DNA of 64,000 bases from an uncultured Bacilli bacterium (GTDB lineage Bacteria; Bacillota_I; Bacilli_A; RFN20; CAG-826), in the NCBI GenBank assembly GCA_905236395.1, contig CAJOPR010000058.1, forward strand, positions 2,515 to 66,514, in the 5' to 3' direction. Below, piece after piece: positions 21,139 to 58,310 of this stretch. The notes below the pieces were generated by a model. The model had not been told where the DNA came from. It saw nothing but the letters and a program-made list of their open reading frames with translations, and ran no database searches. The translations under genes and the position numbers were made by a program. The number at the start of each line of letters is the position of its first letter. Positions within the stretch are counted from its first letter, which is position 1.

Positions 21139-22004
21139 AATTCTTAGGGATTTACTTCACAGGAACCGGAAACACAAAAAGAGTAATTGATAATGCGAAA
21201 GCAGCGTTTATTTCTTTTGGTCATTCCTTAGATGAAGTAGATGTTATCGGTGGTGAAGTGAAAGACTTAAATGAATATGATGGCCTTTTCATCTCCTATC
21301 CTATCTATGGATTTAACGCTCCAAAGCCAATAATTGACTACGTAAAGAAGATTAATAAGCTTGATAAGCAAATACCTTGCCTTATTATGAAACAGTCTGG
21401 AGAGCACTTATTTTGGAATAATGCCTCAAGCTTATATCTCACCAGTTTGTTAAAGAAAAGAAATATCATTGTTAAGAATGAATATCATTACTTAATGCCA
21501 TATTCGTTCATCTTCAGACATACAGACTACATGGCATATCGCATGAATAATGTCATGGAGCATTTAATCCCTATGGATATGGAAGACTTCTTAAATGGTA
21601 AAGAAGTACATTTAAAGAGATTCTTCCTCGATCGTTTCTTTGCCTGGGTACTTCGTATCCAGTGGTGGGGTGGCAGATTCAATGGTCGCTTCTACAAAGT
21701 AGAATCAAAGAAATGTATTAAATGTTTAAAATGTGTCAATGATTGCCCAGTGAAGAATATTGTCTTTGATAAAGAAAAAGGCAAGTTTAAATTCAAAGGC
21801 CAATGCTTGATGTGCCAAAGATGTATCATGTATTGTCCAAGACAGGCAATTAAAGTTGGTATGTTTAACTCTTGGAGAGTGGATGTTCCATACACCTTCA
21901 AAGAAGCGGAATATCAAAAAGAGAAACATCCAAATTATTGCAAGAAGAGTTATATCAGATACTTCGCTGAAAGCGAGAAACGTATCGCAGAAAGTCAAAA
22001 ATAA
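21135..22004 (+). CDS. Flavodoxin-like domain fused to a 2x[4Fe-4S] ferredoxin domain
   Basis: N-terminal flavodoxin-like FTGTGNT motif. Two CxxCxxCxxxCP clusters (CIKCLKCVNDCP, CLMCQRCIMYCP). ATGA overlap with the upstream gene. Confidence 0.6.
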   Translation: MKFLGIYFTGTGNTKRVIDNAKAAFISFGHSLDEVDVIGGEVKDLNEYDGLFISYPIYGFNAPKPIIDYVKKINKLDKQIPCLIMKQSGEHLFWNNASSLYLTSLLKKRNIIVKNEYHYLMPYSFIFRHTDYMAYRMNNVMEHLIPMDMEDFLNGKEVHLKRFFLDRFFAWVLRIQWWGGRFNGRFYKVESKKCIKCLKCVNDCPVKNIVFDKEKGKFKFKGQCLMCQRCIMYCPRQAIKVGMFNSWRVDVPYTFKEAEYQKEKHPNYCKKSYIRYFAESEKRIAESQK

Positions 22005-53725: not shown

Positions 53726-54171
53726 TGGAAACGCTATATAAACAAATAGAATCTTTAGTCAGTAATAAACTCCCGATGGTGAGTAATTTAAGCAATGTTT
53801 CAGCGTTGCTTTTTAAACTTGATAATCTCAATTGGGCGGGTTTTTATCTCGCTGATGAAAATGGCGATCTTTATTTAGGACCTTTCCAAGGCGATGTAGC
53901 GTGTAATTTCATTCCTTATGGCAGAGGTGTCTGCGGAACCGCAGTAGCGGAAAAGAAAACGATCATCGTCCCAGATGTGAATAAGTTTGATGGTCATATT
54001 GCTTGCTCCTCATTATCTAAAAGTGAGATAGTGGTGCCCATTATCAAGGATGGTTTAGTCTATGGTGTGATTGATATTGATTCACCGATATTAGATAGAT
54101 TCCATAAAGAGGAAAAAGCGTTCTTAGAAAAGGTTGCTATTTTACTCGCTGAGAACTGCTTTGGTAAATAA
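53725..54171 (+). CDS. GAF domain protein (free methionine-R-sulfoxide reductase-like)
   Basis: GFYLADENGDLYLGPFQG...CGTA pattern. About 148 aa. Confidence 0.65.
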   Translation: METLYKQIESLVSNKLPMVSNLSNVSALLFKLDNLNWAGFYLADENGDLYLGPFQGDVACNFIPYGRGVCGTAVAEKKTIIVPDVNKFDGHIACSSLSKSEIVVPIIKDGLVYGVIDIDSPILDRFHKEEKAFLEKVAILLAENCFGK

Positions 54172-54321
54172 AATTAACATTTTAAATAAGTGAGTAGAAC
54201 TTAACTTCTACTAAGTAGAATGAATATTGAATAAGTGTTATGTAAACAAAACATAACATTTTTTCTTGTCTAAATGATATTTAGATAATATAGTTATGAA
54301 AGACAAAAGGAAACTTGATTT

Positions 54322-55959
54322 ATGACAATTGGTGAAAAAATCGTTCATTTAAGAGCGACTAGTGGTATTTCCCAAGAAGAACTCGCAAAGATGCTTAAAG
54401 TATCTAGACAAGCTCTTTCTAAATGGGAAAAAGATGAATCTCAACCTCAACTAGAATCCATCAAACAATTATGTGAGATCTTTAAGATTTCCGCTGATGA
54501 ATTAATTAACGACAACGTCGTTATCCATCGTGGAAAGAAACTTAAAGTCAGTATTGGTGAAGACATTAAAACTAAATACTTCGGCACAGATGGTTTTAGA
54601 GGTGAAGCAAACAAGACATTAACAAGCGATCACGCTTATAAGATTGGTCGTTTCTTAGGTTGGTTCTACGCCAATCCTAAATATACAGGATGCAAACCTG
54701 GCTACCGTCCAAAAGTGGTTATTGGTAAAGATACCAGACGTAGTTCTTATATGCTTGAATATGCGGTGGCCGCAGGCTTATCTGCGAGTGGTGCAGATGT
54801 CGAATTATTACATGTCACAACCACACCAAGTGTTTCCTATATTGTCAGAATGGATGGTTTTGATTGTGGTGTAATGATTACCGCATCTCATAACCCATAT
54901 TACGATAATGGTATTAAGGTCATTAACTCCTCAGGAGAAAAGATTGAAGACTCAGTCGCTTTCCTCGCTGAAGCATATTTAGATGGCAATTTAAAACTCC
55001 TTGAAGTAGAAGGCGAAGATCTCCCGTTTGCTTCTAGAGGAAATATTGGCACAATTAACGATTACAGCTCTGGCCGTAACAGATATATTGGTTATTTAAT
55101 CTCTTTAGCGAGACACTCAATGAAGAGCTTAAGAATCGGTCTTGATGCCGCAAATGGTGCGTCATGGATGATTGCTAAAAGTGTCTTTGATGCCTTAGGA
55201 GCACAAACATTTATTATAAATAACCAACCTGATGGTCTTAATATTAACGTCAACGCTGGTAGCACACATATTGAACATCTCTGCAAGTTTGTAAAAGAGA
55301 ATAAATTAGATATGGGCTTTGCTTTTGATGGCGATGCTGATAGATGTTTAGCGGTTGATGAACTTGGTCATCCAGTTGATGGTGATAAGATCATGTACTT
55401 ATTAGCCAACAAACTAAAAGCGGAAGGAGCATTAGAGAAAGACACAGTGGTTACCACAATTATGTCTAACTCTGGTTTAACCAAAGCTTTAAAGGCTAAA
55501 GGTATTGAGAATGTTCAAACCAAAGTGGGTGACAGATTTGTATTTGAAAAGATGCAAAAAGAAGGTTATACACTTGGTGGTGAACAATCCGGTCATATTA
55601 TTATGAAGAAATACGCCACAACAGGTGATGGTGTCCTTACCGCAATCATGGTCACAGAAGAAGTTTTAAATAGAAAAGAATCTCTTTCTAAACTTGTTGC
55701 ACCTGTTAAGTTACTACCACAAAAACTTAGAAACGTTCGTGTTACTAATAAAGCCGCGGTCATGGATGATGCCGCTGTCTTAGCTAAGTTCAAAGAAGTA
55801 AACGATGAAATTGGTGAAAATGGTAGAGCCTCATTAAGACAAAGCGGTACTGAACCAGTGGTGAGAATCATGCTCGAATGTCCAACTGAAGAAGAATGTG
55901 ATAAATACATCGAAAAGATTTACGCAGTAATTAAGAAAAGAGGATATGTTTGTGAATAA
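54322..55959 (+). CDS. glmM: Phosphoglucosamine mutase with an N-terminal XRE-type HTH domain
   Basis: Residues 1-65 form a Cro/C1 HTH (QEELAKMLKVSRQALSKWE). Then canonical GlmM follows (KYFGTDGFRGEAN, active-site TASHNPYYDNGIK). No internal ATG precedes the mutase domain. Confidence 0.75.
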   Translation: MTIGEKIVHLRATSGISQEELAKMLKVSRQALSKWEKDESQPQLESIKQLCEIFKISADELINDNVVIHRGKKLKVSIGEDIKTKYFGTDGFRGEANKTLTSDHAYKIGRFLGWFYANPKYTGCKPGYRPKVVIGKDTRRSSYMLEYAVAAGLSASGADVELLHVTTTPSVSYIVRMDGFDCGVMITASHNPYYDNGIKVINSSGEKIEDSVAFLAEAYLDGNLKLLEVEGEDLPFASRGNIGTINDYSSGRNRYIGYLISLARHSMKSLRIGLDAANGASWMIAKSVFDALGAQTFIINNQPDGLNINVNAGSTHIEHLCKFVKENKLDMGFAFDGDADRCLAVDELGHPVDGDKIMYLLANKLKAEGALEKDTVVTTIMSNSGLTKALKAKGIENVQTKVGDRFVFEKMQKEGYTLGGEQSGHIIMKKYATTGDGVLTAIMVTEEVLNRKESLSKLVAPVKLLPQKLRNVRVTNKAAVMDDAAVLAKFKEVNDEIGENGRASLRQSGTEPVVRIMLECPTEEECDKYIEKIYAVIKKRGYVCE

Positions 55960-56614
55960 GAAAATTTTGACTAAAGAATTATTTGATTGTGATATCCCTT
56001 TCTTAAAAGAGGTGTTCGATAATGCCACATATCCTTGGGAAATTCTTCCTCAGATTAAAGAAGTGGTGGCGAAAGCCTTAAAAGAAGGCCTTCCTGGATA
56101 TCATTTATTAGAAAATGGTATTCTTGTTGGTGAGAATGTTAGCGTAGCTAAAACAGCGACAATCTTACCTCCAGCGATTATTGGAAGTGGCACAGAGATT
56201 AGACCTGGCGCTTACTTAAGAGGCAACGTCATCGTTGGTGAAAACTGTGTCTTAGGTAACTCCAGTGAATTGAAGAATTGCATTCTTCTCTATCACGCTC
56301 AAGCACCACATTATAACTACGTTGGTGATTCCATCTTGGGAAATCACGCTCATATGGGTGCTGGAAGTATCTGCTCAAATTTAAGAAGTGATGGTAAGAA
56401 TATCGTTATCCACGCTGATAAGGATCACGAAACCGGCATTAGAAAAGTCGGCGCCTTCATCGCTGATCATGCCGAAATTGGTTGTGGTGCAGTTTTAAAT
56501 CCTGGAACCATCATTGGTAAAAATACACAAGTCTATCCACTTGTAAGTGTGAGAGGCATTGTGCCAGAAAATAGCATCTATAAAGATAAAGACAATATTG
56601 TCGATAAAAGATAA
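55946..56614 (+). CDS. Left-handed beta-helix (hexapeptide repeat) acyltransferase, GlmU C-terminal-domain-like
   Basis: Hexapeptide repeats (IGENCVLGNSSEL..., IGCGAVLNPGTIIG). Overlaps the glmM stop. Confidence 0.5.
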   Translation: MFVNKKILTKELFDCDIPFLKEVFDNATYPWEILPQIKEVVAKALKEGLPGYHLLENGILVGENVSVAKTATILPPAIIGSGTEIRPGAYLRGNVIVGENCVLGNSSELKNCILLYHAQAPHYNYVGDSILGNHAHMGAGSICSNLRSDGKNIVIHADKDHETGIRKVGAFIADHAEIGCGAVLNPGTIIGKNTQVYPLVSVRGIVPENSIYKDKDNIVDKR

Positions 56615-56615
56615 G

Positions 56616-56642
56616 AAAAAGGTTGCGATTTGCAACCTTTTA
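56616..56642. terminator. Bidirectional terminator (aaaggttgc-gattt-gcaaccttt)
   Basis: Perfect 9-bp stem between convergent genes. Confidence 0.75.
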
Positions 56643-56651
56643 CTTTGTAAA

Positions 56652-57035
56652 TTATTTCTTTTTATCTCTTTTAAGATAATGATTTTTTAATGCATCGTAT
56701 GTCTCTTGGGAGATGATGTGTTCCATCGCACATGCATCTTCATAAGCGACTTCCTCAGTAACTCCAAGATCGATTAACGCTCTAGAGAGGATTTGGTGAC
56801 GGTCATATGTCTTTTCAGCGATCTCAAGTCCGCTAGGAGTGAGGTTGATTTCACCGGTATCATCGTTAACAGTGACATATCCATATGCTTTGAGCTTCTT
56901 TAAAGCGATAGATACAGATGGCTTAGAGAACTTCATAAAAGTGGCTATATCAATAGCCCTGACGAATTCTTTCTCATTTTTAAGCATGAGAATTTTCTCT
57001 AAATAATCCTCAACTGATTCTTTCTTGTTATACAT
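56652..57035 (-). CDS. DtxR/MntR family metal-dependent transcriptional regulator
   Basis: Family pattern: N-terminal wHTH (VRAIDIATFMKFSKPSVSIALKKL) and metal-binding helices. Confidence 0.7.
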   Translation of the reverse strand: MYNKKESVEDYLEKILMLKNEKEFVRAIDIATFMKFSKPSVSIALKKLKAYGYVTVNDDTGEINLTPSGLEIAEKTYDRHQILSRALIDLGVTEEVAYEDACAMEHIISQETYDALKNHYLKRDKKK

Positions 57036-57272: not shown

Positions 57273-58310
57273 ATGAAAATGTTCGACTTGAAAGGAGCGG
57301 TTTTGGGTTTAAATAAGCCTGGAATTGTTTCTTTGCTCAACAGTATTGAGCTCTACAAAGGTAAAACCTTACCTGTCGCAAAGATTAAAAAGGTTGAAGA
57401 TTTAAAACTTATAGCTCGTCGCAGTGGTGTTATTGCTAGTAATGCCATCGGAAGTGTTTATATTTCCGAAGAACGCGAAAGAGCTCTTTTTGTGAAAGGA
57501 AGTGCGCCACAATCATTACAAGAACACATGGTCAGTGGCTATAGCAACGCTTTAGATCTTATCGAAGAGAACTATAAGTTTCAACCATTAGATCGTAGTT
57601 TCATTTCCACATTACATTATTATATTTATAAGGATTATAACCCTGATTTTGGTGGTCGTTTTAAAGACTCTCAAAACTACATCCAAGAAGCGATGCCAGA
57701 TGGTTCTTTTAGAACAATCTTTGTGAGCTCCGCTCCTGAGGAAGTTTTGCCATTATTAGATAGCCTTATTTATCAGTTCAATTTATGCGCGGCTGATGAA
57801 GAATGCAATAAACTCATCCTTATCGCATGCTTCATGCTCGACTTTATGTGCATCCACCCATATAACCATGGTAATGGACGTGTCAGCCGTTTAATCCTTG
57901 AATTCTTATTAAAGAAATATGGTTATGATGTCGGCGATTACTTCGCTATCCCATATTTAATGAGAAATCACTTAGGCGAATATATCGATGCTTTTGAAGC
58001 TTCATCCAAAGGATGGCATGATAACGAAAACGATTACGAAGCATTCGTTAGTTTTATCTTAAAGAGAATCTTAGAAGCCTATCGTAAACTCGATTACATT
58101 TTAGAAGTTAACGATCTCGATGCGACAAGCGAAGAGAAAGTCTTAAAAGTGGTGGTTGATAGCGCAACACCAATTAGTAAGACTGTCGTTATCAACGTTT
58201 TATATGCAACTAGCCAAGCCACAATTGAGAAGGCTTTAGCAAAGTTATTAAAAGATGGCCGTATCCAATTAATTACCAAAGGCCGTTATTCCAAATATTT
58301 TAGAGTATAA
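57273..58310 (+). CDS. Fic/DOC family protein with a non-canonical motif HPYNHGNGRVSR
   Basis: Fic core HxFx(D/E)GNGRxxR is present, with His at the D/E position. 345 aa. Confidence 0.75.
   Translation: MKMFDLKGAVLGLNKPGIVSLLNSIELYKGKTLPVAKIKKVEDLKLIARRSGVIASNAIGSVYISEERERALFVKGSAPQSLQEHMVSGYSNALDLIEENYKFQPLDRSFISTLHYYIYKDYNPDFGGRFKDSQNYIQEAMPDGSFRTIFVSSAPEEVLPLLDSLIYQFNLCAADEECNKLILIACFMLDFMCIHPYNHGNGRVSRLILEFLLKKYGYDVGDYFAIPYLMRNHLGEYIDAFEASSKGWHDNENDYEAFVSFILKRILEAYRKLDYILEVNDLDATSEEKVLKVVVDSATPISKTVVINVLYATSQATIEKALAKLLKDGRIQLITKGRYSKYFRV

Follow-up and report, generated by a model that had tools for sequence, protein, structure and literature searches.

An XRE-type helix-turn-helix domain fused to phosphoglucosamine mutase in uncultured Bacilli, and a candidate operator for its predicted autoregulation

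An HTH domain and GlmM in a single reading frame

A 64,000-nucleotide stretch of DNA from an uncultured Bacilli bacterium (GTDB lineage RFN20, CAG-826; GenBank assembly GCA_905236395.1, contig CAJOPR010000058.1, positions 2,515 to 66,514), here called the window and numbered from its first nucleotide, carries a gene whose product joins an XRE-family, Cro/C1-type helix-turn-helix (HTH) domain to phosphoglucosamine mutase (GlmM). This gene is overlapped by a second one, which encodes a left-handed beta-helix (LbH) acetyltransferase. The coding features are as follows.

54322-54516, plus strand: XRE/Cro-C1 HTH domain, residues 1-65 (Pfam HTH_3, E 4e-14; five helices in the AlphaFold2 (AF2) model)
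54517-54573, plus strand: linker, residues 66-84, VVIHRGKKLKVSIGEDIKT (alignment; AF2 predicted local distance difference test (pLDDT) below 50; no in-frame start)
54574-55959, plus strand: GlmM part, residues 85-545, four domains (TIGR01455, 493 bits; matches to PDB 7OJR and 3PDK)
55946-56614, plus strand: LbH acetyltransferase, 222 residues (Hexapep/LbH Pfam hits; C-terminal half of GlmU only)

The stretch from 54322 to 55959 is a single uninterrupted open reading frame (ORF) on the plus strand with an ATG start, and it encodes a protein of 545 amino acids in which the XRE/Cro-C1 HTH (residues 1-65) and the linker (residues 66-84) are followed by a four-domain GlmM (residues 85-545). Pfam searches of this protein returned HTH_3 at residues 11-61 (E 4e-14) and PGM_PMM_I to PGM_PMM_IV within residues 85-534. 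No in-frame ATG, GTG or TTG is present across codons 66-90; the GlmM part can therefore not be started separately, and an internal start for the mutase was ruled out. Both points agree with an earlier note on this DNA, which had placed an HTH of 65 residues and a linker ahead of GlmM in one frame and had described the mutase as lacking a start of its own. By sequence criteria the 545-residue product is a true in-frame XRE-HTH-GlmM fusion, and with an apparently competent enzyme and a DNA-binding domain within one polypeptide it has the domain make-up of a trigger enzyme.

The HTH domain scored 52.8 bits against HTH_3 (PF01381), for which the gathering cut-off is 23, and it was strongly conserved, with many positions unchanged among 37 homologues. 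An AF2 model of the fusion, built from a shallow alignment of 37 sequences, had a mean pLDDT of 64 and is usable only for the fold of the HTH, where helices at residues 3-13, 18-24, 29-36, 44-54 and 58-62 (pLDDT 80-92) form the five-helix fold of XRE proteins. The recognition helix is approximately S28-R29-Q30-A31-L32-S33-K34-W35.

Distribution and origin of the fusion

Among 5.8 billion proteins searched, at least 120 protein clusters at 81-88% identity were recovered whose members have about 545 residues; all of them carry HTH and PGM Pfam hits, and the named members are annotated as 'phosphoglucosamine mutase [Bacilli bacterium]'. The fusion protein of the window is itself present on four assembled contigs. 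A scan of GTDB genomes added at least seven single-ORF fusions in Clostridial metagenome-assembled genomes (MAGs) labelled Acutalibacteraceae, Ruminococcus, Christensenellaceae and others, in which the GlmM part is 63-66% and the HTH about 50% identical; a metagenome scan with residues 1-110 added at least 39 more fused loci (54-87% identity) from rumen and gut samples. In total, at least 46 independent fused loci were found, in low-GC 'Bacilli bacterium' MAGs from rumen and gut (the low-GC group) and in Clostridial MAGs (the Clostridial group), where the counts from both scans are lower bounds and the GTDB matches listed exclude the window's own species group. The HTH fusion is nevertheless rare among GlmMs overall: of the 150 representatives, out of 1.84 billion, that best matched residues 1-200, about 6 were fused, as were 7 of 80 GTDB loci among the matches listed.

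These comparisons bear directly on the reading in which a frameshift, an assembly error or a missed stop has joined a small XRE gene to glmM. No point in support of such an artefact was found, and the identical unbroken frame recurs in at least 120 clusters and in at least 46 loci assembled independently from different samples; moreover, the protein sequence of the linker is conserved, and the mutase lacks a start codon and a ribosome-binding site of its own. An artefactual origin of the fusion was ruled out by the clusters and independent loci, and its probability is practically nil. The earlier note had proposed a check of the frame and a comparison with related taxa, and the same clusters and loci supply both, each in favor of the fusion. 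It had also allowed that the arrangement might be a well-known one in this lineage; the fusion is indeed usual there, in that it is conserved across the whole clade, but full-text literature searches found no published description of an HTH-GlmM fusion.

In a neighbor-joining tree of the GlmM parts, the fused proteins formed a single clade that contained one nested non-fused member, which indicates one origin of the fusion with occasional loss. The nested member (L008, from a GTDB MAG of Eubacteriales) is a GlmM with only a 9-residue N-terminal extension that is still followed by an LbH gene, and it appears to have lost the HTH secondarily. Three GlmM-like representatives (P0220, P0262 and P0266) carry N-terminal extensions of about 140-155 residues that are not the HTH of the window; other kinds of N-terminal GlmM fusion may exist. 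Outside the window, 8-16 tandem XRE HTHs close to the HTH of the fusion were seen in P0121 (1002 residues), P0126 (703 residues) and P0232 (2332 residues).

The GlmM part retains its active site

The GlmM part matched the glmM equivalog model TIGR01455 (NCBIfam) over residues 87-538 with 493.1 bits, against a cut-off of 447.55, and the Pfam domains PGM_PMM_I, II, III and IV follow one another in order, each above its gathering score. The best-matching solved structures were the GlmMs of Bacillus subtilis (7OJR; E 4e-120) and Bacillus anthracis (3PDK; E 6e-117), and the alignment to 7OJR begins at residue 3 of that protein (KYFGTDG), which corresponds to residue 85 of the fusion. The catalytic residues of B. 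anthracis GlmM are Ser100, Asp240/242/244, Glu325/Ser327 and Arg410/Ser412/Arg419 (PMC10087520), and in the alignment these map to Ser189, D336/D338/D340, E421/S423 and R506/S508/R515 of the fusion, within a phospho-Ser loop TASHNP, an Mg loop DGDADR, a sugar loop GEQSGH and a phosphate loop RQSGTEPVVR. All nine of the active-site residues were unchanged across 37 homologues, and the four catalytic motifs were retained in 35 of 35 full-length fusions, with changes confined to non-catalytic positions. A comparison of the two fused lineages gives 63-66% identity for the GlmM part and about 50% for the HTH. An alignment of the C-terminal part to GlmM had been advised in the earlier note, and in it the phospho-Ser loop and the Mg site are intact. 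Since the active-site residues are invariant and the motifs are kept in all full-length fusions, the mutase is most probably still functional in its predicted interconversion of glucosamine-6-phosphate (GlcN-6-P) and glucosamine-1-phosphate (GlcN-1-P).

The canonical GlmM proteins of Firmicutes (7OJR, 3PDK and Staphylococcus aureus 6GYZ) aligned over their full length (E 1e-110 to 1e-120), with the same four domains and the same catalytic residues, so that the fusion probably forms the M-shaped dimers that GlmM is known to form (PMC8573169). Compared with canonical GlmM, the fusion has an additional 84-residue N-terminal HTH and linker, as well as a 7-residue insertion in domain 1. The regulatory role of canonical GlmM is a protein-protein inhibition of the cyclic di-AMP cyclase CdaA/DacA (PMC8573169, PMC6368335) and not a matter of DNA binding, and the glmM of the window does not lie in a cdaA-cdaR-glmM operon.

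It could be argued that the fusion has become a sensor paralogue without housekeeping catalysis, with a plain glmM elsewhere serving the pathway. BzdR of Azoarcus provides a precedent, as it consists of an XRE-type HTH and a shikimate-kinase-like domain (PMC3602430); it resembles the fusion in having an N-terminal XRE HTH, a linker and a C-terminus with an enzyme fold, and it controls the operon of a related pathway, which is also what is predicted for the window protein. However, the kinase-like domain of BzdR is a non-catalytic effector sensor, whereas the GlmM active site in the window is fully conserved, and the window protein is for this reason most likely still a pathway enzyme. The invariance of the catalytic residues, the score above the glmM equivalog cut-off, the apparent translational coupling to the next enzyme of the pathway, the clustering with nagB or glmS and the better conservation of the GlmM part than of the HTH all argue against a sensor paralogue, which we regard as very improbable.

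A stand-alone acetyltransferase follows the fused gene

The 222-residue protein encoded at 55946-56614 gave Hexapep/LbH hits only in Pfam (Hexapep E 5e-18), and no nucleotidyltransferase domain was detected in it (no NTP_transferase Pfam hit). Its ORF shares 14 nt with glmM, or 8 nt if translation starts at a GTG two codons further on. The earlier note had described this overlapping gene as the hexapeptide half of a GlmU-like protein without its uridyltransferase, and these results are in full agreement. The protein matched positions 212-391 of the 393 positions of Arch_glmU (TIGR03992) with 136 bits, compared with a cut-off of 292, and it lies far below every GlmU cut-off (TIGR01173, TIGR03992 and TIGR03991). 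The best PDB match was the C-terminal LbH of Sulfolobus tokodaii ST0452 (2GGO/5Z09; residues 243-390, E 2e-24). His122, Tyr125, Asn145 and Lys151 align to H308, Y311, N331 and K337 of ST0452, which we take, from the literature on ST0452 and Escherichia coli GlmU, to be the functionally essential residues, and the motif PHYNYVGDS was present in 57 of 58 LbH neighbours. These data suggest that the protein is probably a GlcN-1-P N-acetyltransferase that is translationally coupled to glmM.

No uridyltransferase gene of the NTP_transferase or UDPGP family was found within the 64-kb window, and the uridyltransferase is therefore presumably encoded elsewhere. An LbH gene adjoins glmM in 39 of 81 listed Firmicutes loci, fused or not, which suggests that the split-GlmU arrangement is widespread. 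Immediately up- or downstream of a non-fused glmM, such a gene was seen in many MAGs of Oscillospiraceae, Acutalibacteraceae and Christensenellales (L009-L081), and none of the cultured isolates that were sampled (Faecalibacterium prausnitzii, Sharpea, Faecalibacillus and others) showed one next to glmM. According to a 2026 preprint, some bacteria, sporadic Clostridia among them, encode GlmU only as truncated C-terminal domains and have a monofunctional uridyltransferase, NagU, alongside (10.64898/2026.06.23.733835). The stand-alone acetyltransferase that the earlier note had singled out as an oddity is thus present, but with these loci and this report it is less unusual than had been supposed. 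Dissected halves of GlmU are active autonomously if they are trimeric, according to the account of Pompeo 2001 cited in PMC10087520, and trimerisation is required for the acetyltransferase activity of GlmU (PMC10087520).

The window protein is thus an LbH-only homologue of the GlcN-1-P acetyltransferase half, and in this it is like the NagU-type split GlmU, the dissected GlmU of E. coli and ST0452; its gene adjoins glmM. It is closer to the archaeal-type ST0452 than to bacterial GlmU, its activity is a prediction from sequence, and, in contrast to the NagU split systems, no uridyltransferase partner came to light in the 64 kb.

An LbH gene directly follows every fused glmM for which the complete downstream sequence is available, and it usually overlaps it. 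In relatives, the third gene is either nagB, which scored above the TIGR00502 cut-off, or at one locus (L003) glmS, with 764 bits against TIGR01135 and likewise above cut-off. The operon of the window is without nagB, which directly follows the LbH gene in L084-L088, L099, L100, L103 and L121 and is divergent from the same promoter region in L106 and L122. At 56614-56652 nagB was either lost or never present; what follows the LbH gene there is a terminator hairpin and then a DtxR/MntR-like gene in convergent orientation.

56617-56641, no strand assigned: hairpin AAAAGGTTGC-loop-GCAACCTTTT in the gap where the LbH gene and the DtxR-like gene converge (terminator scan)

This hairpin is likely a bidirectional terminator that ends the operon. 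Rfam searches of the window and ten related loci detected no glmS ribozyme or other riboswitch, and returned only four tRNAs.

A conserved palindrome upstream of the fused genes

Four features lie in the region upstream of the fusion gene.

54160-54181, no strand assigned: weak operator-like site TTTGGTAAATAAAATTAACATT, secondary to site A, 79 bp further upstream and over the stop codon of the GAF gene (position weight matrix (PWM), 10.5 bits)
54206-54220, no strand assigned: lineage-specific perfect palindrome TTCTACTAAGTAGAA (TTCTAC-N3-GTAGAA), about 35 nt upstream of site A (exact match)
54239-54260, no strand assigned: candidate operator site A, TATGTAAACAAAACATAACATT, which departs slightly from the conserved palindrome TATGTAAAC-N4-GTTTACATA (top PWM hit; orthology)
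54266-54294, plus strand: predicted sigma-70-type promoter with a -35 TTGTCT (54266), a 17-nt spacer and a -10 TATAGT (ends 54294) (consensus scan)

A comparison of upstream regions revealed that almost all fused genes are preceded by a palindrome of 18-22 bp, either TGTAAA-N6-TTTACA or the variant GCAAC-N5-GTTGC. The consensus of the low-GC group is TATGTAAAC-N4-GTTTACATA, with the core TGTAAA-N6-TTTACA, and a perfect orthologous palindrome is exemplified by TGTAAACCAAAGTTTACA; of the 40 non-redundant low-GC fused loci listed, about 31 have the site between -78 and -109 relative to the ATG. In the 220 nt that precede fused genes, sequences with at least 10 of the 12 core positions had a density of 5.4 per kb, compared with 0.085 per kb elsewhere in the same loci, an enrichment of approximately 64-fold. 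When the 64 kb were scanned with a PWM made from 29 orthologous sites, from which the window's own site had been left out, the best hit was 54239-54260 (18.0 bits), followed by 54160-54181 in the same upstream region (10.5 bits); the best hit outside this promoter reached 8.0 bits. Across 1.27 Mb of fetched loci, only five PWM hits of at least 12.5 bits lay outside the promoters of fused genes, and no further target genes for the candidate operator were seen in these approximately 1.27 Mb of loci and flanks. The weaker site has counterparts 78-80 bp upstream of the main site in two relatives (L089 and L092), and TTG- and TATAGT-like boxes recur upstream of fused genes in relatives. The candidate operator appears to sit in the promoter of the glmM/acetyltransferase operon, which in relatives also includes nagB or glmS.

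The variant GCAAC-N5-GTTGC was found upstream of six of six listed Clostridial fusions, in one or two copies each, and upstream of only two of 73 listed non-fused glmM genes, leaving 71 of the 73 without it; the hits at these two loci (L020 and L043) looked like chance. In some low-GC loci this variant lies over the ribosome-binding region (-27 to -29). The type of site followed the recognition helix: a helix with RQSV was accompanied by a GCAAC-type site in 12 of 12 listed loci, whereas among listed loci with RQSL the GCAAC type occurred in none of 16 and the TGTAAA type in all 16. This co-variation is the pattern that a co-evolution of reader and site would predict, and it is partly phylogenetic. 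The site also stays with the fused gene while the upstream neighbours vary (GAF, TetR-adjacent unknowns, the S15 region and others).

A separately encoded regulator might own the palindrome instead, in which case the fused HTH would bind elsewhere or serve as a protein-protein module. The site in the window is imperfect, and with TTCTAC-N3-GTAGAA there is a second conserved palindrome, so that the promoter may be the target of several factors. Nevertheless, the operator palindrome goes with the fused gene in two distant lineages whose neighbouring genes differ, is missing in its GCAAC form from 71 of 73 listed non-fused glmM promoters, occurs almost nowhere else in approximately 1.27 Mb, and changes its type with a residue of the recognition helix; in addition, a symmetric site of 15-18 bp is of a size that suits a Cro/C1 dimer. 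A separate regulator is accordingly rated as rather improbable.

The other palindromes of this region were considered as well. TTCTAC-N3-GTAGAA occupies the corresponding position in the closest relatives (L087 and L089-L094), another subclade has TTATAAC-N3-GTTATAA instead, and TTCTAC-N3-GTAGAA does not track the recognition helix of the HTH. It was rejected as an operator of the HTH, since it is restricted to one subclade and is replaced by another palindrome in a subclade whose recognition helix is identical. A second exact copy of TTCTAC-N3-GTAGAA is found at 21690-21704 inside a Fer4-domain ORF, where 0.15 copies are expected per window. A third palindrome, TCTAAATGATATTTAGA, at 54269-54285, lies between the predicted -35 and -10; it is absent from the upstream regions of relatives and was ruled out as a conserved site. 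Sites of the cre/LacI type have a 14-bp spacing, and such an identity of the operator palindrome was ruled out by its spacing of 18 bp.

A model for autoregulation by HTH-GlmM

The interpretation that we favor, with moderate confidence, is that HTH-GlmM is a bifunctional, self-regulating trigger enzyme that acts on its own amino-sugar operon via the palindrome. Because GlmM is a dimer, two N-terminal HTHs would be presented together; these would bind the two-fold symmetric operator TGTAAA-N6-TTTACA (54239-54260) in the manner of Cro/C1 repressors, and perhaps also the weaker site 79 bp upstream. Binding would control the transcription of the operon of HTH-glmM, the GlcN-1-P acetyltransferase gene and, in relatives, nagB or glmS, with negative autoregulation as the most likely logic. 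Repression could be relieved or strengthened by the state of the enzyme, i.e., by substrate occupancy, phosphorylation of Ser189 or closure of domain 4, and the outcome would be a coupling of the flux of UDP-N-acetylglucosamine (UDP-GlcNAc) precursors to expression.

How the state of the enzyme might reach the DNA is a more tentative matter. A metabolite-gated switch, in which an open/closed or phospho/dephospho cycle driven by GlcN-6-P or glucosamine-1,6-bisphosphate repositions the HTHs and thereby switches operator binding, is a possibility that we would put forward with some reserve. If it were true, the supply of amino sugars for building the cell envelope in these uncultured Firmicutes of the gut would be sensed by the mutase in place of the glmS ribozyme or GlmR-type controls, and the mutase would be the first phosphohexomutase shown to be a transcription factor.

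A simpler protein would bind its operator constitutively, with protein abundance setting expression and with catalysis and DNA binding independent of each other. The operator evidence fits such an autoregulator equally well, and a linker with an AF2 pLDDT below 50, whose sequence and length differ among the Clostridial fusions, would suit a passive tether; in the low-GC group, however, the linker (IVIHRGKKLKMSIGEDIKTKYFG) is near-invariant even where the HTH has diverged, a hint of coupling rather than of a passive tether. Furthermore, when a regulator is fused to the enzyme that heads its own pathway operon, this usually means ligand coupling, as in BirA, PutA and NadR. On balance, autoregulation without metabolite sensing seems unlikely, albeit credible.

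It should be noted that several observations weigh against a self-regulating HTH-GlmM. The AF2 model, with its mean pLDDT of 64, is uninformative on the placement of the HTH relative to GlmM or to the dimer axis, and the correlation between helix and operator is confounded by phylogeny, with perhaps two to four independent changes. Site A has two mismatches in its right arm, and the bare 10-of-12 consensus TGTAAA-N6-TTTACA has six matches in the window compared with 8.25 expected, which is at chance; it is the PWM rank and the orthology that support site A, and not the bare consensus match. The position of site A just 5' of the predicted -35, with its center near -52, suits an activator as well as a repressor. 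In addition, the model does not account for TTCTAC-N3-GTAGAA at 54206-54220, and a different regulator may be the one that binds the operator palindrome.

Among known trigger enzymes, BirA (a biotin ligase and repressor), NadR and PutA carry a fused DNA-binding domain, and the concept is said to be that of Commichau and Stuelke. A self-regulating HTH-GlmM would resemble them as a metabolic enzyme (predicted to be active from its sequence) with an N-terminal DNA-binding domain in one polypeptide, in having its own-pathway operon as the predicted target, and in a dimer that offers two DNA-binding domains to a palindrome. It would differ in that the enzyme is an alpha-D-phosphohexomutase and the DNA-binding part is a Cro/C1 (XRE) HTH, not a winged helix or a ribbon-helix-helix. 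To our knowledge, no alpha-D-phosphohexomutase has been reported in the role of a fused DNA-binding trigger enzyme. What is new here is therefore the HTH-GlmM fusion with its conserved candidate operator, while enzyme-fused regulators and stand-alone acetyltransferase halves of GlmU were already known.

The supply of UDP-GlcNAc is central to cell-envelope synthesis, and its control, by the glmS ribozyme, GlmR, GlmM-CdaA and NagU, is a live topic. Autoregulation by HTH-GlmM, if true, would be a new mode of control for the amino-sugar pathway in abundant uncultured Firmicutes of rumen and gut, and a compact and directly testable case of an enzyme evolving into a regulator; the two operator variants, paired with variants of the recognition helix, offer a ready-made specificity experiment. 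The LbH companion adds cases to the recently recognised split-GlmU pathways, and the pair of glmM and acetyltransferase genes is widespread in Clostridia.

Other features of the window

The fusion had been called the second HTH-enzyme fusion of the window in the earlier note, and the other one could not be identified by similarity to the HTH of the fusion: tblastn found no second XRE HTH of the fusion type in the window, and Pfam searches of ten unannotated ORFs of the window found neither an HTH-enzyme fusion nor an NTP_transferase or UDPGP domain among them. A 345-residue Fic-domain protein is encoded at 57273-58310, and its C-terminal approximately 100 residues, which are without a Pfam hit, appear winged-helix-like by eye; this protein may be the other HTH-enzyme fusion that was meant. 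Unrelated to the fusion, small ORFs without Pfam hits surround a T2SSE-type ATPase gene (8316-9374) at 6923-10739, and this region looks like a competence or type-IV-pilus-like operon.

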